Source: Firmicutes bacterium UBA5435
GTDB lineage: Bacteria > Bacillota > UBA5435
Reading direction: 5' to 3'
Assembly: GCA_002426645.1 (NCBI GenBank)
Contig: DIRN01000045.1
Span: 16,983 to 80,982 of the forward strand
DNA: 64,000 nucleotides
Position 1 is the first letter of the stretch, and each line of letters begins with the position of its first letter. This document shows positions 1,874 through 39,845 of this stretch, one piece after another. The notes below the pieces were generated by a model. It did no database searches and was not told the DNA's origin. It worked only from the letters and a program-made list of their open reading frames with translations. The position numbers were made by a program, and so were the translations under genes.

Positions 1874-3655
1874 TTATCCCTCCTCAGCCTTTATCAACTG
1901 TACGAGTTTTGTGAGGAGTACCTTTGTCTCAGCAGTCGTTTCGCCTAATAGACCAGCGATCTCCTGAGCCACTCTCATCTGTTTATCTATGACTTGTTGT
2001 GCTTTTTCTGCAGTTTCCATCTTAACCCGAGTCAATTCTTCACGCTGACGTTCTTCTCTAGTGATATCAGTAAAGATCCCTATAAGCAAACCTTCTTTTG
2101 GAACTGGTACCACAAGAAGTGTCATTACAAGATCGCTTCCATTATATGTACCCTTACCAGATTGCGGGGTTCTATCTTCTACCGCCTTGACGAAGAGCTC
2201 ACAATCTATGAATTCTGACAGGTTTTCCCCTTTCATCTTATCCGGGTTCCACCTAAACATCTGTTCTATAGAAGAATTTATCTCAAGTATCTTAAATTTT
2301 CTATCAGTCACTATGATCCCATTAGGTATAGACTCTAGGACTAACGTAGAAAGTGATTCCGCCCTAGCACGCATATATGGAATGCACATCTCCACCTCTG
2401 CCATCCCTTGATAGACAGCAATAGCCTTCTCCCTACAACTGTTATAGCCGCATGCTCCACAGTTCAATTCATCACTACGAGTGAACTTACCAGTAGCAGC
2501 TAGTATTTTACGTATTTCCGCCTCATCTGGGAGAGGCAAAATAACGCGTTCATCCCTATAACGTTGAAAGAGCCAACCATCTCCTTCTGACTCTACTGCC
2601 TTTATTTGACTTTTCATATCATCAATAAATATATTTGGAAGAATTATAGCCCTATCTTCCCCACTGCTATACTCTAAGACCTTCCTACGACGGGTAAAGA
2701 GATCCCCGTTCCACTGAAATCCCGGCCCATTTATACAACCACCAGAACATCCTAACATCTCTACGACTCGAAGAGGATCATCTTCTTTTTCTATGTCTTC
2801 CTTTTTTACAAATTCCTTTAAAAACTCCACGCAAGAATCTATACCACTGATGATAAGGGTATCCTTTTCTAAAGAGTCTGTTCCAAATTGAGCAGTCTTT
2901 AAAAATCCTCCTTCCACTGGAAAGAGTCTTGCAAATCCAGAACTATCCTCTATAGCCTTTGAGTTACATTTAAAACTATCAAAAGCCTCGCAAGGGAGTT
3001 CTTCGGGAATAATACCCTTATCATCTAACCATTCTATAAGTTCTTCAAATGTGAGAACAGCATCAACGCTGTCACCCCACTCCATCTCTCCCTTTTTGGC
3101 CACACAAGGCCCAATAAATACTACCTTTAAATCTCTTCCCCAATATCTTTTAGCCATTCTCGCATGCGCAACCATAGGAGATACTATTGGAGAAAGATAG
3201 GGAATTGCTTCTGGATAATACTTCTTTATAAGATTGACCACAGCAGGGCAAGAACTAGATATAACTGGCTTTGAAGCAAACTTTTGTAATTGTTGTTCAG
3301 CCCTTGCCACTAGTTCTGCTCCAAGAGCAGTCTCTTGCACCTTACTAAATCCTAATCTTCTAAGAGCCGCTACTATTTTACCAGGCTCGCGATGATCAAA
3401 AGCTGCTACAAAAGACGGTGCAATACTCGCCATTAACTGCACTCCAGAACCTATCAAACTCTTTGCGGTATCCAAATCGTCCCTTATCTCTTTTGCTCCT
3501 TGAGGGCACACCTTAACGCATATACCATCTTGTATGCATTTTTCATCAACTACCTGCGCATGACCTTCAACGATCTTAATGGCCTTCATTGGACAGGAAC
3601 GAACACACTTATAACAGTCCCTACAATTTGCTCGATTCGTCGTTACTACGTTCAT
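1874..3655 (-). CDS. Sensory [FeFe]-hydrogenase-like protein with C-terminal Cys cluster and PAS domain (HydS/HfsB type)
   Basis: 593 aa. N-terminal 4Fe-4S ferredoxin motifs (CRDCYKCVRSCP, CIQDGICVKVCP). H-cluster-like motifs SSSCPAV, GPCVAKKGE and GCSGGCINGPG. Then CGACGYNSC and a PAS-like tail. Confidence 0.8.
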   Translation of the reverse strand: MNVVTTNRANCRDCYKCVRSCPMKAIKIVEGHAQVVDEKCIQDGICVKVCPQGAKEIRDDLDTAKSLIGSGVQLMASIAPSFVAAFDHREPGKIVAALRRLGFSKVQETALGAELVARAEQQLQKFASKPVISSSCPAVVNLIKKYYPEAIPYLSPIVSPMVAHARMAKRYWGRDLKVVFIGPCVAKKGEMEWGDSVDAVLTFEELIEWLDDKGIIPEELPCEAFDSFKCNSKAIEDSSGFARLFPVEGGFLKTAQFGTDSLEKDTLIISGIDSCVEFLKEFVKKEDIEKEDDPLRVVEMLGCSGGCINGPGFQWNGDLFTRRRKVLEYSSGEDRAIILPNIFIDDMKSQIKAVESEGDGWLFQRYRDERVILPLPDEAEIRKILAATGKFTRSDELNCGACGYNSCREKAIAVYQGMAEVEMCIPYMRARAESLSTLVLESIPNGIIVTDRKFKILEINSSIEQMFRWNPDKMKGENLSEFIDCELFVKAVEDRTPQSGKGTYNGSDLVMTLLVVPVPKEGLLIGIFTDITREERQREELTRVKMETAEKAQQVIDKQMRVAQEIAGLLGETTAETKVLLTKLVQLIKAEEG

Positions 3656-3911
3656 GCATGTTCCCCCTAATCATAGGCAAGATTCTCTCTTTAAAGAGAG
3701 ATGGAACATCTTTCGATGCTATACCGCTAACTACTTCCTCGTTGATTTTAATTGTTACCCCGTGAGTGCAATGATTGAGGCAAAAGGCACCTTTAAGCTC
3801 AATCTCTCCTTCTAACGCAGCCTTATGGATAACCTCTTCAAAAGCGTTTATAACATCGTACGCTCCTTTAAGGTAGCAAGAACTTCCTAGGCATACAAAG
3901 ATGGTTATCAT
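3621..3911 (-). CDS. Small thioredoxin-like [2Fe-2S] ferredoxin (HfsA-like)
   Basis: 96 aa with CLGSSCYLKG...CLNHCTHG. SD AGGAGG is present. The 3' end overlaps the next gene. Confidence 0.6.
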   Translation of the reverse strand: MITIFVCLGSSCYLKGAYDVINAFEEVIHKAALEGEIELKGAFCLNHCTHGVTIKINEEVVSGIASKDVPSLFKERILPMIRGNMHERSNDESSKL

Positions 3912-4117
3912 ACCTTCGCCTCCTAGAGTTATATTCCCTCTCTAATGTATTTGTGAAATTTTTCACCAACTCTTCGCTAACATTATACCACGAGGTTATA
4001 CAAAGTTCAATAGTATTCGTGATAATTTTCACAAATGCTATTAAGAATTATTTCTCATAACAATAAATAGGCGCGTATCGTTGAGGTAACTCTACAATAC
4101 TCGCCTATTCATAATCT

Positions 4118-5962
4118 CTAACTATAAAATCTTTCAATTAACTGGATAGCCATTTCATACCTTCCAAACGGTGGCATTAAATAAGCGCCTTCAACTAGCC
4201 CTTCAGCTTCTTTCATAAACTCAAAAGCTATGTCAACGCCCAGGTTAGCTGCTTTATCTGGATCTACTCGCTGCATTTTCTCCCGTACTTTAAGGGGTAT
4301 AGATATCCCCGGTACCTCATTATGCAAAAATTCAGCATGTTTAGAGCTTCTCAATGGTAATATCCCAACCAAAACAGGGATATCCATTCCTTTTATGCTT
4401 TCCATAAATTGCTCCAAAACCTTAATATCATATATAGGCTGTGTCTGAATAAAATGCGCACCTGCTTTAACTTTTCCTCTCAGCCTAGATAGCTCTTTTT
4501 CAAGGTTCTCAGCTCCTGGATTTGCAGCTACACCTATACAAAAATTAGTCTTTTGATTTAAAGCATTACCTGCAAGATCAAATCCTGAATTCATTTTTGC
4601 CAATATATGAACAAGACCCTCTGAGTTAACGTCAAAGACGGGCTTTGCGTTGGGATGGTCCCCTATTGTTGGAGGATCTCCAGTGAGTGCAAGAACATTA
4701 TTAATCCCAAGAGCACTTGCTCCTAACAGTTCAGACTGAATGCCTAAAAGGTTTCTATCCCGACATGTAAAGTGAAGTATGGATTCAACTTCGAGTTGCT
4801 CCTTTAAGATATGAGCAATAGCGACTGGACTAAGTCTCACACGCGCCATAGGAGAATCAGAGATGTTTATACCATCTACACCTACACTTTTTAAGGCTTT
4901 AACGCCTGAGAATACTTTCCCTAGATCCGTACCTTTAGGTGGATCAATTTCAACAGTTATTACGAATTTTTCCTTTAGTTTATTGCTAAACTGAGATTCT
5001 TCTTTAAAGATACTATCTGCACTAGTACGCAATTCATATTCAATTACCTCAATTTGCTCCTTCTGTGTCTGGGTGGTATGGGAATCCATCAGCCCTTCAC
5101 AAATTGCACTTATATGGATAGGAGTAGTCCCACAGCAACCACCAAGAATATTAGCGCCTGCTTCTATGAAGAGAGGAACACTTTTCCTAAAGTACTCTGG
5201 GGATGAAGTATAAACTGTCCTTCCATCTACTATCTTAGGAAGACCAGCGTTAGGTTGTACTGATACCTTAAGATCACGGACGCTCTTCATCTCACGCACT
5301 ACTTCTATAAGGGGTACGATACCCCCTCCACAGTTAGCACCTACAACATCTGCTCCTGCTTCACTTAAAGCATACGCAGCAGTCTGTGCATCTACACCCA
5401 TGAAAGTCTTTCCATCTTGTGAAAATGCCATTTGAGATATTACAGGGATGTTTTTATCTATCTCCTTTGCTGCTTTAAGAGCAAGAAGTGCCTCTTCAAG
5501 GTCTGACATGGTCTCAATAATGAGAAGGTCAACACCTGCTGAAAATAAATAACTTATTTGCTCAAGAAAAGCTTCATAACATTCAGCCTTTGAAAAAACC
5601 CCGTAAGGCTCAAGTATCTTCCCGGTAGGCCCCACAGCCCCTGCAACGTACACGTCTTTACCTGCAGCCTGACGTGCTAGGTCTACTGCAGCTATATTGA
5701 TGTCTTTTACATGATCTTCAAGGCCATACATACTAAGCTTAACACGATTGGCACCAAAAGTATTAGTTTCAATTATATCTGCGCCGCTTTTAACATATGC
5801 CTTATGAATATCAAGCACTATATCGGGATTATGTATATTTGCCCCCTCGCAGCACATACCAATCTCAAGCCCACGTTCGAATAACATAGTACCCATGGCA
5901 CCATCGCATACTAATATCTTTTCCTCTAAAAGCTCAATAACTGATTTTCTCTTCTCCCTCAC
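4118..5962 (-). CDS. yitJ: Bifunctional homocysteine S-methyltransferase / 5,10-methylenetetrahydrofolate reductase (YitJ-like)
   Basis: 614 aa. The N-terminal half is Hcy-methyltransferase-like (GAMGT...GGCCGTTP) and the C-terminal half is MetF-like. GTG start with SD GAGGGG. Confidence 0.8.
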   Translation of the reverse strand: MREKRKSVIELLEEKILVCDGAMGTMLFERGLEIGMCCEGANIHNPDIVLDIHKAYVKSGADIIETNTFGANRVKLSMYGLEDHVKDINIAAVDLARQAAGKDVYVAGAVGPTGKILEPYGVFSKAECYEAFLEQISYLFSAGVDLLIIETMSDLEEALLALKAAKEIDKNIPVISQMAFSQDGKTFMGVDAQTAAYALSEAGADVVGANCGGGIVPLIEVVREMKSVRDLKVSVQPNAGLPKIVDGRTVYTSSPEYFRKSVPLFIEAGANILGGCCGTTPIHISAICEGLMDSHTTQTQKEQIEVIEYELRTSADSIFKEESQFSNKLKEKFVITVEIDPPKGTDLGKVFSGVKALKSVGVDGINISDSPMARVRLSPVAIAHILKEQLEVESILHFTCRDRNLLGIQSELLGASALGINNVLALTGDPPTIGDHPNAKPVFDVNSEGLVHILAKMNSGFDLAGNALNQKTNFCIGVAANPGAENLEKELSRLRGKVKAGAHFIQTQPIYDIKVLEQFMESIKGMDIPVLVGILPLRSSKHAEFLHNEVPGISIPLKVREKMQRVDPDKAANLGVDIAFEFMKEAEGLVEGAYLMPPFGRYEMAIQLIERFYS

Positions 5963-6040
5963 AGTTACCCCTCATCTCTGTTAAAGAATTTTAGCTTGTC
6001 TTAAAAACATGGGGATTCCCGGGATACCTGCACACGCCTT

Positions 6041-6182: not shown

Positions 6183-7067
6183 GTGATAGATATCTCCTCT
6201 GAAGAAGATTTCGCTGGCATCCTTGAATCCCTTCAAGCAAAGGGCCTTCATCTGGTTTCAGAGCCTTTGCCTCTCTTCATTGGCGGCGTACAAATTAATC
6301 TCTTTCATGAGAATTCCACTCTTCCAGCGCTCTTTCATCCATCATTCCTATGTGGGAATTATATTGTTGAACCCAAGGAATGTAATATTTATTTAAATGA
6401 GAGAAGATTTAATATTGAACCCCAACTCTGTAATAGGGAAGCCTACCCAGTACGTAAAGGGGAATCAATCATGGCATCTGATATATATATTTCCTTATCA
6501 GATTATAAGAGGAAAAAGTGCACAGCTATGGTACTAGAGAATCTACCAGCAGATGATCTATTGACTATAGTGAGATGGTTGATGCCACCATTCCTCATAG
6601 ACTTTCAGATACTCCCTATACATGCCTCAGGAATAATCCATAAAGAGAAAGGTATCTTATTTATCGGTCACTCTGGAGCTGGTAAATCCACTGTGGCCAG
6701 GCTCTCAACCCCCCGCAAAGTCCTTAGTGATGAATGCGTACTCATAAAGAAAGATGGGGATGCCTTCACCGCATATGGTACTCCCTTTGGTCGAGAGGAT
6801 AAAGGCGAGAATATCCATGCCCCTCTTTATGCTATTATGGATCTAAAAAAAGATTCCCGCGACTACCTAAGACCCCTCCCCTTCCATGCAAGGTTAAACC
6901 TTATTATGAAACACCTTTGGACCTCTACAATACCTAAAGCAAACCTCAAGCTTCTATTGAATCTTGCTGTAGATATAGCAAGAGTAACGCCAGCATATGA
7001 ATTGCACTTTAAGAAAGAAAGCACATTCTGGAACGTAATCGATGAGCAGATCTTCAGCCATATCTAA
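6183..7067 (+). CDS. HPr-kinase-C-terminal-domain-like P-loop protein (RiPP-associated kinase candidate)
   Basis: Walker-A-like GHSGAGKST followed by LSDECVLI, as in the HprK C-domain. I moved the start to the GTG at 6183, 8 nt after GGAGG at 6170-6174. The track ORF starts at 6009. Confidence 0.65.
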   Translation: MIDISSEEDFAGILESLQAKGLHLVSEPLPLFIGGVQINLFHENSTLPALFHPSFLCGNYIVEPKECNIYLNERRFNIEPQLCNREAYPVRKGESIMASDIYISLSDYKRKKCTAMVLENLPADDLLTIVRWLMPPFLIDFQILPIHASGIIHKEKGILFIGHSGAGKSTVARLSTPRKVLSDECVLIKKDGDAFTAYGTPFGREDKGENIHAPLYAIMDLKKDSRDYLRPLPFHARLNLIMKHLWTSTIPKANLKLLLNLAVDIARVTPAYELHFKKESTFWNVIDEQIFSHI

Positions 7068-7088
7068 TTAGAATAGGAGTGATATAAG

Positions 7089-7400
7089 ATGGAATACAAA
7101 AGAAGGATTCTTAAGAAAAAACCTGATCTTATCTATCGAGTTGTAGATGAAGAGACTATACTCCTTGACCCTGAAAGCGGGTACATGCATCTTCTCAATT
7201 CAACGGGCAAAGAAATATGGGAGCTAATAGATGAAGTAGGTAAGGATTTCGATGATATCCTCGCTGCTATGGTCGATGAATATGGCCACACAATAGATTT
7301 AGATGTGCTCAAAGACGATCTTGAAGAATTTATAGATACACTTTTAGAACACGGAGTAATTATAGAAGAAGGTAAGTCAGCTCATACCAAGGAAGAATAG
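7089..7400 (+). CDS. PqqD-family protein (RiPP recognition element-like)
   Basis: 103 aa. YRVVDEETILLDPESGYMHLLNSTGKEIWELID is the typical PqqD pattern. Confidence 0.8.
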   Translation: MEYKRRILKKKPDLIYRVVDEETILLDPESGYMHLLNSTGKEIWELIDEVGKDFDDILAAMVDEYGHTIDLDVLKDDLEEFIDTLLEHGVIIEEGKSAHTKEE

Positions 7401-7407
7401 ACCTTTT

Positions 7408-7437
7408 AAATAAGTGGACAGATCTGTCCACTTATTT
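7408..7437. terminator. Bidirectional intrinsic terminator between convergent genes
   Basis: Perfect 13-bp inverted repeat AAATAAGTGGACA-gatc-TGTCCACTTATTT, with A/T runs on both sides. Confidence 0.7.
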
Positions 7438-7439
7438 AA

Positions 7440-7790
7440 TCAATCTCGGGTAATCTCAGACACCTTTCCGATTACGCGGTCAAAGAGTACAGGAGGGTCT
7501 GTATAAGGAGAATTATCTCCTTTAGTTATAACATAAAGTGCACCATCTCTAGTCCCTACTTTTATCACACGATGAATTATGATCAACTCTCCGCTCATCC
7601 AAAGAGCTACAATATCCCCTTCTTTAAGTCCTGAAGCTGGAACTATCCTTACAAAATATTCTGAAGGTATAACTGGCTCCATACTAGACCCTTTACCCTG
7701 TAACCTAACTTTTTGGCCGCATACTATTGCTTCTTTCATTAACTTTACAGCTATACTTATAGCTTCTTTTAGAAAAGGGGTGTCCGCCAT
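7440..7790 (-). CDS. S26/S24-family signal-peptidase-like serine peptidase
   Basis: 116 aa. GSSMEPVIP (catalytic Ser context), GDIVAL and IIHRVIKV. SD GAGGGTGA. Confidence 0.65.
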   Translation of the reverse strand: MADTPFLKEAISIAVKLMKEAIVCGQKVRLQGKGSSMEPVIPSEYFVRIVPASGLKEGDIVALWMSGELIIIHRVIKVGTRDGALYVITKGDNSPYTDPPVLFDRVIGKVSEITRD

Positions 7791-7796
7791 TATAGA

Positions 7797-7898
7797 TCAC
7801 CCTCTGCATATATTCCAATACCATCCCACACTTTCAGTATTACATATAGCTAATGGTCCAGTCTCTAAGCCAGGTTTAAAGATTCTCTCTGACCGCAT
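7797..7898 (-). CDS. Candidate 33-aa precursor peptide MRSERIFKPGLETGPLAICNTESVGWYWNICRG
   Basis: Below the ORF-track cutoff, found by hand. It is the only substantial ORF in the rSAM-peptidase gap and has two Cys in its C-terminal half. The SD is weak (the nearest AAGGAG is 24 nt upstream). Confidence 0.25.
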   Translation of the reverse strand: MRSERIFKPGLETGPLAICNTESVGWYWNICRG

Positions 7899-7932
7899 CT
7901 CAGGCTTTACATACTTGCGCGGCTCCTTCTTC

Positions 7933-8985
7933 TCAGTCCTTCTTTGAACCTTTTGAGACATCCTCTTCCCTCCTTTCTCTTAGCATATTATAAGCAGCTC
8001 TGCGATTTGCTGCGATCCTACAATGTTCCTGAGAAGGTTTCACTATGGAACCTGTTTCTAATATGTTCATCACAAGGCATGGCGTACAAAACTCATTATG
8101 CTCACAGGCTATGCACTCATAAAAGTCCTCATCGCGAAGCGCTCTCAATGATCTGAGTATATGTGAGCCTCGCCACGTTTCAGCAATAGAACCAGATAAT
8201 ATATTTCCTATAGTTTGTGGAAAACCTATACAAGGGCGGAGAGAACCTTCAGGCCCAATTACCAATCCTTTCTTTCCAATTGAGCACTTACTTAAGGGTT
8301 GCGGATAAAACCCTTGTAACCCCTCTGCTAAAAATATGTTTACCATCTCTTCATCTGTCAACCGATGCATATTAGCGCCATCAGCCTTAAGTAGAAGCTG
8401 TGGATCAAACCTGACTCTAATAGGGAACCCTATCGATTCTGCATATCTTAAAGTCTCCTCATATGCTTTAGCTGTCTCTCGCATTGTAACTACTTTAAGG
8501 AAGACGCTTACATCCCTCTCTTTCAAAAGTCTCAGCCCTCGCGCAAAGGCTTCAAATGCACCGCTACGACCCGTTGCAAGATCATAAACCCCCTTAGAGC
8601 CTCCATACACGCTAACTTCAACCTCTAGAGGCATGAGCGATGCTATCTTATTTGCATTAACCTCATCTATGCAAGTGGCATTGGTAAATAAACTTAAGTA
8701 AAGATTCTCCTCCTTTGCAGCGCAAGCAATTTCATACCAGTCATATCGCATAAGGGGTTCGCCACCTGATAGAGTAACCTTTAAGACTCCCATGTCATGT
8801 AACTGCCTAAAGACATCTTTCAGAGAGGATACGCTTAAGTTATTTCTTGTTCTCTCTCTAACATATGATGGGACATAGCAATGAAGACACCTCAGGTTAC
8901 ATATATGTGTAAGTTCAATAAGAACTCCATGTGGAATAGATTGAGAATCATATAGTTCTATGACGTATTTCAATAATCTGCTCAT
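7933..8985 (-). CDS. Radical SAM protein with SPASM-type C-terminal domain
   Basis: 350 aa. CNLRCLHCY (CxxxCxxC). C-terminal PCIGFPQTIGN...CIACEHNEFCTPC...HC cluster. Confidence 0.85.
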   Translation of the reverse strand: MSRLLKYVIELYDSQSIPHGVLIELTHICNLRCLHCYVPSYVRERTRNNLSVSSLKDVFRQLHDMGVLKVTLSGGEPLMRYDWYEIACAAKEENLYLSLFTNATCIDEVNANKIASLMPLEVEVSVYGGSKGVYDLATGRSGAFEAFARGLRLLKERDVSVFLKVVTMRETAKAYEETLRYAESIGFPIRVRFDPQLLLKADGANMHRLTDEEMVNIFLAEGLQGFYPQPLSKCSIGKKGLVIGPEGSLRPCIGFPQTIGNILSGSIAETWRGSHILRSLRALRDEDFYECIACEHNEFCTPCLVMNILETGSIVKPSQEHCRIAANRRAAYNMLRERREEDVSKGSKKD

Positions 8986-10379
8986 CTTCTTACGGTTCCT
9001 TTTATCAATCTAAAGCCTTCTTCAAAACCAAGGCTCTTGATTATCTCCATACGTTCCTGCTCCTTTTCGGTTAAACCTCCGTCCATAACTACTGCACCTT
9101 CTTTTAAAAGAATAAAGGTACCGTAATATATGGCTGTTTTAACCCCTTCTTTACTTCCTACGGTTAATTCATTAAAACTATGTAATTCCCAAAGTCCCTT
9201 TACACAGGTCTCACCAAACAAAGCCCATGAAAGAGGCCGTTCCTCTTCATCTATCACAAAAAACAGCTTGTACTTGCGATTAAATCTATGAAAAAAGGTT
9301 AAAGCCCTATTAATAACTTTAAGAGTTTTATCATGGATTTGAATATAGCTCCCGTTGATCTCATCATCACTATTATATTCTTTAATAGTATATCCTTTAA
9401 AGTTAAAGCATGCATTCGAAAAAGGCTCATCCCTCAGATAATAACTACTATTTGAGCGTTCTTTAATATTCAAGACCTGCTCTGCAAGGGGCCACATCCA
9501 CTCTTCAGTCATTACTAGTTCAAAGTCATCCTGCTCATGAGTTAAGAGCCATTCCATGAATGCTTTAGCTTCGCGTACCTCTGATGACCTTATAATAAAA
9601 ATCCTCCCAAAAGCAAAATTTATTTCAATGATGAGACCATTGCTATGTTGCTTCATTTCAGGATAGCGACATACATAAAACTTAGGTTGGACAATCTTTT
9701 TCATGCTATCTTCTATAAGTTCTAATATATAACAGTTAAGGAACGCATCCTTTCGAAGTTTATATATAATCCTTGAGATCCTAGAGAACTTTAAAACACT
9801 GGGGCTACCCTCTTCATTTAATTGTTCTCCAGATAGTTCTTCAAACGCGACTCTGAGTTCCATCTTCCCCCTATGTATTGCATTCTTAACCTGGTATAGG
9901 GTCATACCAAGAAGTTCGCCTATCTCTTTATAGGATTTGCCTTCTATATAGCTTAAAAAAAGAGGAGCATACCTTTTATATGGAAGTGTCTGTAATGCTC
10001 TAAGGAGGAAAGAGGTATCCTCCTTTTTTATAATCTTATCTTCGATAGATTTATCATCCTTAGAATCTAAAGGTTCCTTTAACCCTGATTCTATCATATA
10101 ATCAATTGAAAGAGGTTGATTCCGTGAGGTTTTAAAATGATCCTTAATGATATTCCTAGCTATACCAAAGAGCCACTGGTTAAATTTATCTCTACTCTTT
10201 AAAGTATCTATATTCTCAACTACTCTTAGCAAAGTTTCCTGAGCTACCTCATCAGCATACGTAGGATTTCCCAGGACTTGTAGGGAGAAATAATATATCT
10301 TATTACGCGAAGATTCAAATAATCCATTTACATCCCCTTCCTCGAGCTGAAAGACTTCAAAAAACTTATGTACTTGCAT
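8982..10379 (-). CDS. ECF-type sigma-70 factor fused to an uncharacterised ~280-aa C-terminal domain
   Basis: Region 2 (DEVAQETLLRV...WLFGIARN) and region 4 (YKEIGELLGMTLYQVKNAIHRGK) lie in the first ~190 aa. The start is set at the ATG at 10379 (SD AAAGGAG, 8 nt). There is a 4-nt overlap with the rSAM gene. Confidence 0.7.
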   Translation of the reverse strand: MQVHKFFEVFQLEEGDVNGLFESSRNKIYYFSLQVLGNPTYADEVAQETLLRVVENIDTLKSRDKFNQWLFGIARNIIKDHFKTSRNQPLSIDYMIESGLKEPLDSKDDKSIEDKIIKKEDTSFLLRALQTLPYKRYAPLFLSYIEGKSYKEIGELLGMTLYQVKNAIHRGKMELRVAFEELSGEQLNEEGSPSVLKFSRISRIIYKLRKDAFLNCYILELIEDSMKKIVQPKFYVCRYPEMKQHSNGLIIEINFAFGRIFIIRSSEVREAKAFMEWLLTHEQDDFELVMTEEWMWPLAEQVLNIKERSNSSYYLRDEPFSNACFNFKGYTIKEYNSDDEINGSYIQIHDKTLKVINRALTFFHRFNRKYKLFFVIDEEERPLSWALFGETCVKGLWELHSFNELTVGSKEGVKTAIYYGTFILLKEGAVVMDGGLTEKEQERMEIIKSLGFEEGFRLIKGTVRR

Positions 10380-10493
10380 TCTAGAAACTCCTTTCATGCC
10401 CTTGGAATAAAATGAGATATATATAAATTCTACATAGCTTTGTAAAATCCTCTAACGATATGATTATAAAGTGTAGATATATTTGGAAAAATC

Positions 10494-12257
10494 TTATTTA
10501 GTAATTAACTTTGTAAAATCATTAAAACCCATGTGTAGATGAACCGTGGTTTTTTTCGTCATCTTTGGAGGGATCTCTCCTAGATCAGCAACTATTTGTA
10601 TGAAATTTTCAGCTGCATAGGAGCGACGCACTGAGGTTAAATGATTATTAATTAAGATTAGACCGAAATCAGACTCTTCGTTATGTACACCGATAAAATC
10701 TCCCTTAAGGGCTCTTTCGTTATCTTTAAGGTCCATACCTTTAGGCTTAGAGACATTAAAGGTGAAGTTTTCTTTTACAGGAAAGGACTCTAACCCTTTT
10801 TCCGTCTCAACTAACAGGCTTTCTTTACCCTTAGCCCATATATCTTGATAACTAACTCTAAATATAAACCTCACTCTCTTTAAGGTCTTTTTATCTTCCT
10901 TATTACCCACTTTTATCTTGAATCTTACCGAATCAAAACTGGGGATTATACTTCCTTCCAGGCTACATCCAGAAGAAGCTACATACTCTCCATTGTTTAG
11001 AACATCCTGTGATGATAGATTTAAAGACGAAAGTATGTATGAGCCATTAGAATCTCTCAACCATCTAACTCCTTCAGGTAGTAAAGAGCCCGCTTTTGAA
11101 GGGTTGTTCTCATCAAGCAAAGTAATGTATAATCTGCCATATATCCTCCACCAAGAATTTGACGCTTCAAGAATCAAATTTAAGATCTCTGGTCGTAGTT
11201 TAGGGGACTCATAAATCGGGCTACATGTTAGCCCAGAGGCTCTACGTACCTCTGGCGTTTTACAGAAACTTCCGACCTGTAAATCACCGATTACTTTATC
11301 GTCCTCTGTTAATGCATCCTCTATGCCTTGTAAGAATCGTTCCTGTATAAGCCCAGGGAAAATCCTATTAACCTGATACAAAGAGAAAGATATAGGAGAC
11401 CCAATATTATGGGTTTCAATATAGTTATAGAAAAGATCCTGATCTAGTTCGTGGCGAAACCCCCAAAGGATATACGCAATATCGCAAATTCGCCCCACCT
11501 TTATATGCATATTGTTCCTAAAATGCCAGTAATGATGTAAGCATGCGTGGAGAAGAAGATTTTCATTAGATAGACGCCAACTATCCACATTCATAACCTT
11601 AAAAGGCAGGCTACCCTCTAAAAGTACCTTTTCATTAAGGGTGAAATCATCTAAAGTTCCGCCAAAGGACCAATGTAGATCTATAGAAAGGGACATGCGA
11701 TCTGTAAGGAGCTTCCTAAATGGATATGCATGCTGAGTCCTTAAATATCTATCTTTATCCCCTTCATTAATAGCTTCAAAAAGTCCTGTCTTAGGATTAA
11801 ACTTGGTTTGACTATATCCGAGTTCTTGTAGGATATTATATGCGTCTCCATGTCTCTCACGAGGTACAAAGATATCCAAATCTCCATAAGGGCGTGCTGA
11901 TATTGATGGATAAACCCCATCGGCTAGTACAGGTCCTTTAAGAATTGCATATGGGATTCCCATGCCATTAAAAGCAGTAGATATCTGCGCTATCTCACGC
12001 GATACCAATAAATGTCGTATAGTAGTCCTTTTAAGTCTGTCCCTAAAATTATGGTTTATTTTCGCTGGTAGAATCTCTGGCTTATCTGAATGCAATATAT
12101 TATAAGCAATAAGATTTAAGGTCCTATGAAAAGACGCCACTCCCTCAATATATTCCCAGTCTACCTCATTGGAATATGCGGGGAGATTTCCGTCAAATTC
12201 AGGGTCAATTAGTAACCTTAATAGTCCTCGTTCCAGCCCTGTATCTAACGTTCTCAA
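10494..12257 (-). CDS. Nucleotidyltransferase-family protein (NTP_transf_5-like) with extra C-terminal domain
   Basis: 587 aa. ILKGPVLADGVYP...RPYGDLDIFVP motif. TTG start after GGGGGG. Confidence 0.6.
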   Translation of the reverse strand: MRTLDTGLERGLLRLLIDPEFDGNLPAYSNEVDWEYIEGVASFHRTLNLIAYNILHSDKPEILPAKINHNFRDRLKRTTIRHLLVSREIAQISTAFNGMGIPYAILKGPVLADGVYPSISARPYGDLDIFVPRERHGDAYNILQELGYSQTKFNPKTGLFEAINEGDKDRYLRTQHAYPFRKLLTDRMSLSIDLHWSFGGTLDDFTLNEKVLLEGSLPFKVMNVDSWRLSNENLLLHACLHHYWHFRNNMHIKVGRICDIAYILWGFRHELDQDLFYNYIETHNIGSPISFSLYQVNRIFPGLIQERFLQGIEDALTEDDKVIGDLQVGSFCKTPEVRRASGLTCSPIYESPKLRPEILNLILEASNSWWRIYGRLYITLLDENNPSKAGSLLPEGVRWLRDSNGSYILSSLNLSSQDVLNNGEYVASSGCSLEGSIIPSFDSVRFKIKVGNKEDKKTLKRVRFIFRVSYQDIWAKGKESLLVETEKGLESFPVKENFTFNVSKPKGMDLKDNERALKGDFIGVHNEESDFGLILINNHLTSVRRSYAAENFIQIVADLGEIPPKMTKKTTVHLHMGFNDFTKLITK

Positions 12258-12282: not shown

Positions 12283-12708
12283 TTACCGTGCAAAGGCAAT
12301 AATTAGACCACCTAAAAGAATTAAGGCATTCCCTATAACCACAGGGGTTGTTACTTTCTCATGCAAAACTACCACGGCCAGCACAAAGGTGAATACAACG
12401 CTAAGACGATCAATAGGAACTACTCGGGTAGCAGGACCAAGTTTAAGCGCAGCAAAATAAGCGATCCATGAGAATCCTCCTGCAATACCTGATAACAAAA
12501 GAAAGACCCAATTCCGGGATGAAAATGCTGAAATACCGCTTAAACGATGAGTAGCAAGAGCTACAGTAAAGGTAGTGATTAACATGACTACAGATCTAAG
12601 GGCTGTAGCTGTAACTGAATCTACACCCTCTAAACCAATTTTGCCAAAGATTCCTACTAACGCAGCACTTATAGCAGAAAGCAAAGCAAATCCAAGCCAT
12701 GATTCCAT
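12283..12708 (-). CDS. EamA/DMT-family small membrane transporter
   Basis: About 141 aa with 4-5 hydrophobic helices. AGGAGG lies 9 nt before the ATG at 12708. Confidence 0.65.
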   Translation of the reverse strand: MESWLGFALLSAISAALVGIFGKIGLEGVDSVTATALRSVVMLITTFTVALATHRLSGISAFSSRNWVFLLLSGIAGGFSWIAYFAALKLGPATRVVPIDRLSVVFTFVLAVVVLHEKVTTPVVIGNALILLGGLIIAFAR

Positions 12709-12736
12709 ATGCAAGAGCCTCCTTCTAATAATGCCT

Positions 12737-39754: not shown

Positions 39755-39845
39755 TCTCCGGCAACCGGCTATCATAGTTAGAGCACTAACTGTAGACCCA
39801 CGGCTTTGCGTCCTCACCTTTCGATGAGTTTGCCTTTATCGGATT
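39755..39845 (-). ncRNA. c-di-GMP-I (GEMM-I) riboswitch aptamer
   Basis: Minus strand: AAAGGCAAACUCAUCGAAAGGUGAGGACGCAAAGCCGUGGGUCUAC...AGCCGGUUGCC. This matches the GGCAAAC..GAAA..GGACGCAAAGCC..GGGUC core, and GGCAA/UUGCC closes P1. Confidence 0.75.

Follow-up and report, generated by a model that had tools for sequence, protein, structure and literature searches.

A radical SAM/SPASM, ScmC-kinase and PqqD gene cluster in a Firmicutes genome: a probable peptide-maturation locus of a widespread family

In lasso-peptide clusters, HPr-kinase homologues transfer phosphate to the Ser at the C-terminus of the linear precursor and depend little on the sequence elsewhere; in that of pseudomycoidin, the nucleotidyltransferase extends this phosphate by one or two hexoses, and in some clusters a nucleotidyltransferase is fused to the leader protease, B2 (PMC8498205). 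The locus described here is a compact cluster of seven genes, about 6 kb in length, in Firmicutes bacterium UBA5435; it lies in a 64,000-nucleotide (nt) stretch of contig DIRN01000045.1 (positions 16,983 to 80,982), which we call the window. The cluster encodes an HPr-kinase-like protein of the ScmC family, a discrete PqqD protein, a nucleotidyltransferase-fold protein of family NTP_transf_5, a radical SAM/SPASM enzyme, a short Cys-containing peptide, a Sec11-type peptidase and a fused sigma factor. Its closest characterised counterparts are the phosphorylated lasso peptides, for the accessory module and the leader, and the radical SAM thioether peptides, for the core enzyme. With a probability of roughly 0.7, we regard it as a maturation cluster for a ribosomally made peptide with post-translational modifications (RiPP) that belongs to a widespread family.

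Like the lasso clusters of the paeninodin and pseudomycoidin type, this locus combines a discrete PqqD protein, an HPr-kinase-like kinase and an NTP_transf_5 protein, and its precursor family has a leader of the form K-K-x-Y-x-K-P-x-L/I, with Ser, the residue on which paeninodin-type kinases act (PMC8498205), at the C-terminus of most members. The original prediction, which was made from the DNA letters, had called these accessory genes lasso-type; the kinase fold and the NTP_transf_5 assignment agree with it, and a leader of the type Y-x-x-P-x-L/I/M extends the analogy. Unlike a lasso cluster, the locus has no Asn-synthetase-like cyclase and no transglutaminase-like B2 protease within 10 kb on each side, as had been predicted, and neither gene is found in the related loci L012 and L013. 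A radical SAM/SPASM enzyme and a Sec11-type peptidase stand in their place, and the core of the peptide, which here ends in Gly, is marked by Cys rather than by an N-terminal amine paired with Asp or Glu.

The closest catalogued, though uncharacterised, system is the SynChlorMet cassette (ScmC-F), with the HPr-rel-A and GeoRSP systems nearby; with these the cluster shares an HprK-like ScmC protein, a PqqD homologue and a PqqE-like radical SAM/SPASM enzyme, and models of these systems are the best NCBIfam matches for three of its proteins. Against the SynChlorMet models (TIGR04248-04251), however, the scores are 33.5 bits for ScmC (cut-off 125), 20.8 for ScmD (cut-off 100) and 101.8 for ScmE (cut-off 400), there is one radical SAM gene instead of two (ScmE and ScmF), and the Sec11-type peptidase, the NTP_transf_5 protein and the sigma fusion are additional. 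Because the cut-offs are failed and the radical SAM gene is single, we treat the cluster as a relative, not a member, of that cassette. To our knowledge, no precursor is identified for SynChlorMet in its TIGRFAMs description, whereas a precursor family is evident for the present cluster. Among the HPr-rel-A models (TIGR04352/TIGR04353), PqqD_rel_X is just passed and HprK-related kinase A reaches 17 bits against a cut-off of 200.

Sactipeptide and ranthipeptide systems (SkfA/SkfB, CteA/CteB) share with this locus a radical SAM enzyme whose SPASM domain is complete, Cys residues in the core, and PqqD-like leader recognition. The recognition element is a separate protein here, in contrast to the N-terminal fusion of those systems, and no curated maturase model is reached; we know of no kinase or nucleotidyltransferase tailoring, and of no Sec11-type peptidase, in either class. 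The original prediction held that no RiPP class with this gene composition had been described. That stands insofar as we found no characterised product, but not for the cassettes themselves, which are catalogued (SynChlorMet, HPr-rel-A and the Pfam family ScmC). In a literature search that left subscription journals mostly outside its reach, the only papers found on a radical SAM/kinase cassette concerned lasso peptides, and we found no curated precursor model, product or paper for this family. Neither this way of combining modules nor the Sec11-type leader peptidase nor a Cys-rich precursor family ending in Ser appears to have been described; the underlying logic is that of standard RiPPs.

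The precursor candidate is a short open reading frame (ORF) at the 3' end of the radical SAM gene, with the predicted product MSQKVQRRTEKKEPRKYVKPEMRSERIFKPGLETGPLAICNTESVGWYWNICRG. Its leader carries the motif KYVKPEMRSERIF, including Y17-V-K-P20-E-M22, and its core contains two Cys residues, C40 and C52, before the C-terminal ...CRG. The ORF had been predicted to have 33 codons. That version was discarded, as it has no ribosome binding site (RBS) and its start Met, which is M22 of the longer peptide, is Ile in L001 and L002, two contigs that are 92% identical to the window. The longer start is preceded by AGGAGGgaagaggATG as a strong RBS, and the 54-aa product is called by gene callers in three independent assemblies; judged by these sequence features, the ORF is 54 codons long. 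Between this locus and its 92% relative, the last 32 residues of the peptide are unchanged, with 2 synonymous changes, and the ratio of nonsynonymous to synonymous change (pN/pS) of the precursor gene is 0.25. Across the four genes that could be compared it is 0.24-0.46, which indicates purifying selection.

Homologous short ORFs are present in L010, L012 and L013, and the leader is also common to L021, L023, L041, L098 and L099. Ten precursors gave no match to NCBIfam models, with faint similarity only to lasso leaders, namely those of rhodolasso (E = 0.03) and the PadeA family (E = 0.3). We also weighed, and dismissed, the idea that the core is that of a lasso peptide: read from the sequence, the peptide has no Thr at -2 followed by a Gly, Ala, Ser or Cys at position 1 that is paired with a ring-closing Asp or Glu at positions 7-9.

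The peptides of this cluster, L010, L012 and L013 have in common the leader [KR]-Y-x-K-P-x-[MI]-x-S-x-[KR]-[IV]-[FY] and a core of the form C-x10-12-C-x-[SG] that reaches the C-terminus. A hidden Markov model (HMM) built from these four finds ORFs behind the radical SAM genes of L021 (E = 6e-6), L023 (7e-4) and L041 (3e-3), and an HMM trained on 37 curated sequences recovers 67 complete precursor-like ORFs from 65 loci, most of them lying no more than about 100 nt from the radical SAM stop codon. A short ORF directly follows the radical SAM gene in the close relatives and in most of the distant ones, which bears out the suggestion that such an ORF is conserved in homologous clusters; L103 is a further example.

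Throughout the family, conservation is seen in the leader, K-K-x-[YW]-x-[KE]-P-x-[ILV], often followed by ...E-x-A-V-L, and the core is hypervariable, a pattern typical of RiPP precursors. The conserved features of the core are limited to Cys, with three residues in 38 of the 65 loci and two in 16 (2-4 in the more distant relatives), and to the C-terminal residue: 49 loci have Ser there, 6 have Thr and 2 have Gly, this cluster being one of the latter. Scanning metagenomes with the precursor alignment added four loci, among them L098 and L099, whose peptides end ...KYIKPEIKSEKIFETAALACGKC...LS; by their sequences, these two would bridge the leader of this cluster to the three-Cys, Ser-terminated type. 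Some loci have two precursor copies (L025, 8933-9253; L031, 2620-2739 and 3874-3996; L067; L080), and in L025 a single ORF contains two tandem leader-like units (MKEPCEKPKM... and MKEPYEEPEM...).

The remaining genes are conserved along with the precursor, as the original prediction had anticipated. Among the closest radical SAM relatives, which are 38-41% identical, the same genes recur in altered arrangements, the long nucleotidyltransferase and the sigma fusion included; L103, L098 and L099 also show such co-conservation. In L010 the order is ScmC, radical SAM, 54-aa ORF. L012 has the layout of this cluster, with the radical SAM gene, a 45-aa ORF and an S24 peptidase gene (114 aa) facing PqqD and ScmC. 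In L013, genes for an S24 peptidase (111 aa), NTP_transf_5 (562 aa), ScmC, radical SAM and a 62-aa ORF face PqqD and a sigma fusion of 463 aa; paralogous S24-type peptidase genes stand at both ends of the L013 cluster (68-415 and 6457-6729).

A genome scan with the radical SAM alignment yielded 80 more distant loci, with radical SAM proteins 24-34% identical, from about a dozen phyla that include Acidobacteriota, Omnitrophota, Chloroflexota, Desulfobacterota, Elusimicrobiota, Verrucomicrobiota, Planctomycetota and Nitrospinae. Among these 80, at least 57 encode ScmC, at least 31 PqqD, at least 31 an S24 peptidase and at least 13 NTP_transf_5. Clustering of the neighbouring genes puts relatives of S24 and/or NTP_transf_5 in 51 of 78 loci, an ABC ATPase of Wzt/TagH type in 21 of the 78 and Wzz-like proteins in 7. 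One further relative with an adjacent ABC transporter (L102, 39% identical in its radical SAM protein) was set aside, as the assembly is apparently fragmented and of low coverage and the ORF after the radical SAM gene lacks the motif.

Gene fusions tie the enzymes into one pathway. Five loci from Acidobacteriota/Aminicenantes (L033, L034, L047, L059 and L095, at about 3800-5990 in each) encode ORFs of about 670-730 aa in which a radical SAM/SPASM domain is followed, at the C-terminus, by a kinase domain of ScmC type; these ORFs lie 5' of more radical SAM genes and of a 60-aa precursor with four to five Cys residues that begins MKK(E/Q/K)W(R/Q)TPELIVLFKGRPEETLLC... and ends in Ser. Radical SAM-PqqD fusions occur in L003, L084, P0002 and P0003. 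In L016 (4219-5895) and L057 (5165-6871), an N-terminal domain of S24/Sec11 type is fused to NTP_transf_5, which parallels the nucleotidyltransferase-protease fusions of lasso clusters.

In L003 (662-14130) and L008 (2279-12084), the cassette lies amid genes for GT4 glycosyltransferases, a WecA-like Glycos_transf_4 protein, a PIG-L deacetylase, methyltransferases and an AAA_22 ATPase, and L003 also has a true Asn synthase. These surroundings hint at glycosylated products or a role at the cell surface.

The domain identifications of the original prediction all held up, among them an HprK-like P-loop protein, a 103-aa PqqD-like protein, a radical SAM enzyme with a SPASM Cys cluster, an ECF-type (extracytoplasmic function) sigma factor with an extension of about 280 aa and an S26-type peptidase. 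The radical SAM enzyme matches both Pfam domains (Radical_SAM, 1e-23; SPASM, 1.4e-6). Among nine relatives C29, C33 and C36 are invariant, as are C234, C252, C291, C294, C300, C303 and C322, so that the protein has a CxxxCxxC cluster and the full seven-Cys SPASM set. It has no fused N-terminal recognition domain, and the cluster motif begins at residue 29. Its best solved relatives are SkfB (3e-31) and PqqE (4e-29), both of which modify peptides; CteB scores 2.5e-18 and the sulfatase maturase 1e-14; this sets it apart from the anaerobic sulfatase maturases, one of the groupings against which the original prediction had been posed.

Neither this enzyme nor ten of its relatives reaches the cut-off of any curated NCBIfam family. 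All lie far below those of the PapB, StsB, AlbA, SkfB and SCIFF models, and the enzyme itself scores 59.9 against 340 for PapB, 82.7 against 625 for StsB and 57 against 850 for AlbA. A word-indexed search gave three matches and made the protein look like an orphan; this was overturned by an exhaustive HMMER search, which returned 587 cluster representatives at E < 1e-30, the closest of them 38-41% identical. The present cluster has a single radical SAM gene, and several distant loci carry two or three.

For the kinase gene, the GTG at 6183 is the best start codon. It has AAGGAGG 7 nt upstream and agrees with homologue lengths of 290-297 aa, whereas gene callers give a longer ORF of 352 aa from the ATG at 6009. 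The product is assigned to PF27840 (ScmC) in precomputed Pfam annotation, and its NCBIfam matches, ScmC (2.7e-8) and HprK_rel_B (4e-7), are below cut-off. Its homologues conserve H147, G-x-S-x-AGKST and L-x-D, motifs that resemble the active-site segment of HprK/P when the sequences are compared, and a profile search gives weak HprK matches (5e-4) over a 60-residue stretch. In an AlphaFold model from 14 sequences, the C-terminal domain has a pLDDT (predicted local distance difference test) above 90. Foldseek returns 47 matches at E < 4e-3 for this model, all of them phosphoenolpyruvate carboxykinase (PEPCK) or HprK/P, with nothing else below E 0.5; going by the model, the protein is a kinase of HprK/PEPCK-like fold.

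The PqqD protein has a Pfam E-value of 1.7e-17 and scores barely above the cut-off of TIGR04353, the PqqD of the HPr-rel-A system (PqqD_rel_X; 35.2 bits against 35). It misses the lasso-specific models, with 29 bits against 80 for lasso_PqqD_Bac and 26 against 70 for lasso_PqqD_Strm.

The peptidase matches Pfam Peptidase_S24 (2e-5, 24.7 bits against a cut-off of 23.3) and passes NCBIfam TIGR02228, the archaeal/ER-type (endoplasmic reticulum) signal peptidase I, at 53.2 bits against 51.85. Its best profile matches are human SEC11C (5.5e-12) and then SEC11A, and the SM-x-P, HR-V and KGDN motifs align with SEC11A/C; S36, H73 and D92 are the catalytic candidates. Like the Sec11/SipW enzymes (MEROPS S26B), the protein thus has SM-x-P, HR-V/I and KGDN motifs and an invariant Ser-His-Asp, which refines the earlier S26 assignment. 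Unlike them, it is small and without a membrane anchor, no hydrophobic stretch of transmembrane length being seen by eye in its 116 aa, and it is encoded beside a precursor that has no signal peptide, so that we presume it to be a dedicated leader peptidase. Most of the distant homologues have a hydrophobic C-terminal tail.

The NTP_transf_5 match (Pfam, 1.1e-40) covers residues 31-300 of 587. The original prediction was right as to the family and the presence of an extra domain, but gave that domain about 200 aa in place of about 285. The extension has no Pfam match, the protein has no solved relative, and its alignment with the 562-aa homologue of L013 is confined to the N-terminal domain.

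The sigma factor has Pfam Sigma70_r2 (1.5e-12) and r4_2 (1.4e-11) within residues 26-182 of a 471-aa ORF and scores 84.5 bits against TIGR02937 (cut-off 42.9), that is, it has regions 2 and 4 and no region 3. At 10379 a start codon has AAAGGAG 8 nt upstream, and the database product is 465 aa long; on these features, the gene most likely begins there. ECF41 and ECF42 are ECF sigma factors with fused C-terminal regulatory domains. The present protein is like them in having regions 2 and 4, a long C-terminal extension and no visible adjacent anti-sigma gene; it differs in that the extension belongs to no recognisable family or fold and is conserved only in a narrow subfamily. The extension has no Pfam match at E up to 5, and a word search for homologues returned only its own database protein. 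The whole protein aligns over its full length with the sigma fusion of L013 at 25% identity. A single-sequence AlphaFold model was unusable (pLDDT 38), and a GNAT-like look of the C-terminal 'LGFE' stretch, noticed by eye, could not be supported.

What we observe are the genes present and their folds, their co-conservation and fusions, and the signature of the precursors; all chemical steps of the pathway proposed here are inferred, and for each of them taken singly we would offer even odds at best. The stand-alone PqqD protein would bind the K-Y-V-K-P-E-M leader, by analogy with the B1 proteins of lasso clusters, which bind Y-x-x-P-x-L leaders. It would then present the precursor to the radical SAM/SPASM enzyme, which would act on C40 and C52. 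Thioether formation at Cys is known radical SAM/SPASM chemistry in RiPPs, and the most likely product would carry thioether crosslinks formed from Cys, as in sactipeptides or ranthipeptides. The ScmC kinase would phosphorylate a peptide hydroxyl, which in most family members would be that of the conserved C-terminal Ser; in the Gly-ended peptide of this cluster, T42 or S44 may be phosphorylated instead, or no residue at all, and the tailoring may have changed. NTP_transf_5 could add a further group, a sugar or a nucleotide, as happens in the lasso peptide pseudomycoidin. The Sec11/SipW-type peptidase would cut off the leader, probably just before the first Cys, and expression would be under the control of the ECF sigma fusion, whose gene is coupled in translation to that of the radical SAM enzyme.

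Taken as a whole, these steps would describe a new RiPP class that crosses phyla and combines a lasso-type leader, Cys crosslinks made by a stand-alone radical SAM/SPASM enzyme under the guidance of a discrete PqqD, a C-terminal Ser that is phosphorylated and possibly glycosylated or nucleotidylated, and release by a Sec11-type peptidase. We hold this wider proposal tentatively, at a little under an even chance. Were it true, the leader, PqqD, kinase and nucleotidyltransferase of lasso clusters would be a portable unit that has been recombined with another core chemistry, the missing precursor would be supplied for SynChlorMet-like cassettes, and the present subfamily, with its two Cys residues, C-terminal Gly and own sigma fusion, would have branched off within the Firmicutes.

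Several points weigh against these interpretations and should be kept in mind. As the peptide of this cluster ends in Gly, the model of a kinase that targets Ser is not directly applicable to it. The enrichment of C-terminal Ser (background 13%) has a binomial p of 2e-30, computed without phylogenetic correction, and the presence of ScmC is not associated with it, at 41 of 54 loci with ScmC and 8 of 11 without, a comparison confounded by contig ends. An HMM trained without this subfamily does not detect the precursor significantly (E = 1.2, with alignment of the leader alone), so that its link to the wider family rests on the leader motif, the position and the bridging sequences. The grounds for proposing thioethers are two and no others, namely that Cys is the sole conserved core residue and the class of the enzyme. 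The partner counts in the 80 distant loci come from single-sequence phmmer searches with the proteins of this cluster on contigs of metagenome-assembled genomes, which are often incomplete, and are therefore lower bounds. There is no obvious exporter or immunity gene in the cluster; the sole candidate is an adjacent EamA gene, which is not seen beside the L013 cluster. Finally, some distant cassettes lie amid glycosyltransferase, polysaccharide and ABC-2 transporter genes, which may point to a role at the cell surface and not to a diffusible product.

The most serious alternative, though we consider it unlikely, is a cofactor or redox-metabolite pathway of the PQQ (pyrroloquinoline quinone) or mycofactocin type, in which the short ORF would be the scaffold of an intracellular small molecule. 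The best NCBIfam and Protein Data Bank (PDB) matches of the radical SAM enzyme include PqqE, the mycofactocin maturase, NirJ and AhbD, yet every NCBIfam cofactor model scores far below its cut-off. PQQ biosynthesis likewise pairs a PqqD protein with a PqqE-like enzyme; in cofactor precursors, however, the reacting motif does not vary, whereas the cores here vary widely except for Cys and the terminal Ser. The lack of a dedicated exporter or immunity gene would suit an intracellular product, but ABC transporter genes lie near the cassette in at least 21 loci. The [FeFe]-hydrogenase genes that adjoin the cluster both here and in L010 are explained more simply by the shared ancestry of closely related genomes. 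Quite unlikely, too, is a cell-envelope or glycoconjugate cassette whose kinase and nucleotidyltransferase act on sugars or lipid carriers, with a short ORF that is incidental or regulatory. The glycosyltransferase-rich setting of L003 and L008 and the recurring Wzt/TagH-like ATPases and Wzz-like proteins would fit such a cassette, and the substrate of NTP_transf_5 outside lasso clusters is not known. This cluster and its closest relatives have no glycosyltransferase genes, however, PqqD is established as a peptide-binding domain, the short ORF keeps its place and its sequence from phylum to phylum and is divided into leader and core, and the radical SAM-PqqD and radical SAM-ScmC fusions tie the kinase to peptide machinery.

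One might also suspect a decaying remnant in which the short ORF is not expressed, as the subfamily is rare, with few database matches above 40% identity, and has lost the C-terminal Ser of the family. Seven intact ORFs, pN/pS values that indicate selection, a core that differs only synonymously from that of the 92% relative and an identical locus in independent assemblies make this very improbable. The lasso-like leader motif, the PqqD protein, the HprK-like kinase and NTP_transf_5 could likewise be the remains of a split or degenerate lasso cluster whose cyclase and B2 protease are elsewhere in the genome. We give that explanation the least credence of all: the two missing genes are absent from the flanks of this cluster and from L012 and L013, the core lacks the residues that form a lasso ring, and the radical SAM enzyme and the peptidase are consistently co-conserved partners. 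A RiPP-type maturation cluster is the interpretation that we retain.

All seven ORFs are intact in the ORF list, at or very near the coordinates first given, and are collected in Table 1. The stop codon of the sigma gene overlaps the radical SAM start (ATGA), the precursor gene overlaps the 3' end of the radical SAM gene by 29 nt, and the peptidase start lies 6 nt downstream of the precursor ORF. This tight packing with overlaps from sigma factor to peptidase argues, at the level of sequence, for one operon.

Table 1. Features of the cluster, with positions in the window
Feature	Position	Strand	Remarks
ScmC-family P-loop protein, HprK/PEPCK-like kinase fold (by model)	6183..7067	+	294 aa; GTG start, AAGGAGG RBS
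Discrete PqqD-family protein	7089..7400	+	103 aa; Pfam PqqD; presumed leader-peptide recognition element
Perfect 17+17 nt palindrome	7406..7439	unstranded	between convergent units; probably bidirectional terminator hairpin
Sec11/SipW-type (S26B) serine peptidase	7440..7790	-	116 aa, small, soluble; presumed leader peptidase
Precursor-peptide candidate	7797..7961	-	54 aa; RBS, called as gene, homologous ORFs in relatives
Radical SAM/SPASM enzyme	7933..8985	-	350 aa; CNLRCLHC; Pfam Radical_SAM + SPASM
ECF-type sigma factor, regions 2 and 4, ~280-aa C-terminal extension	8982..10379	-	Pfam, TIGR02937
NTP_transf_5 nucleotidyltransferase-fold protein, GDLDIF motif	10494..12257	-	587 aa; ~285-aa C-terminal extension

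The two convergent transcription units had been predicted to share one bidirectional terminator at 7408-7437, and the palindrome found there is perfect and slightly longer. The two strands fold very stably, with energies of -20 and -24.2 kcal/mol (z -5.3 and -7.8), and the 92% relative L001 has a compensatory T>C / A>G change in it. The U-rich stretch sits within the 3' arm and is not a textbook U-tract; we read the palindrome as probably a bidirectional terminator hairpin. A 114-nt gap 5' of the sigma gene holds a candidate promoter, TTTACA-N17-TATATA, at 10446-10418. Inspection by eye found nothing convincing as an ECF-type promoter (GAAC ... CGT) 5' of either unit. The minus strand also has a direct repeat, GATTTTACAAAG(C/T)TA, with copies at 10435-10449 and 10506-10520; one is contained in the final codons of NTP_transf_5, the other shares bases with the -35 element of the candidate sigma-gene promoter, and the repeat may be an operator.

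Genes around the cluster are of mixed kinds. A gene for a 614-aa fusion of homocysteine S-methyltransferase and MTHFR (methylenetetrahydrofolate reductase; 4118-5962, minus strand) adjoins the ScmC gene divergently and is probably unrelated housekeeping. On the other side, a half-size transporter gene of EamA/DMT type (12283-12714, minus strand) starts 22 nt downstream of a TrkH gene and ends 25 nt upstream of the NTP_transf_5 start; it could be co-transcribed with the cluster and serve in export. Flanking genes include one for a sensory [FeFe]-hydrogenase-like protein (Fe_hyd_lg_C + PAS; 1874-3655, minus strand), and genes for a SpoIIE phosphatase, a 2Fe-2S thioredoxin-like protein and a NuoF-like protein are also beside the cluster. 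In the 40% relative L010 (1028-3321), hydrogenase and 2Fe-2S genes lie directly upstream of ScmC, and this neighbourhood is probably synteny shared between related Clostridia-like genomes. The only Rfam match in the 64-kb window is a cyclic di-GMP-I riboswitch aptamer (RF01051) at 39757-39844 on the minus strand, with 79.8 bits against a gathering score of 35.

If the RiPP interpretation is correct, the cluster stands for a large family of peptide natural products with hundreds of radical SAM representatives in about a dozen mostly uncultured phyla, and its precursors would provide a signature for genome mining, in which K-x-Y-x-K-P-x-I/L marks the leader, Cys the core and Ser the C-terminus. 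A homologue of the Sec11/SipW-type signal peptidases would serve as a dedicated leader peptidase, a use for which we know of no precedent, and testable substrates would be at hand for the poorly understood families ScmC (PF27840) and NTP_transf_5 (PF14907); seven genes within some 6 kb are well suited to heterologous expression. The recognition and tailoring module of phosphorylated lasso peptides would then be shared with a radical SAM pathway, which would bear on how RiPPs evolve by the exchange of modules.

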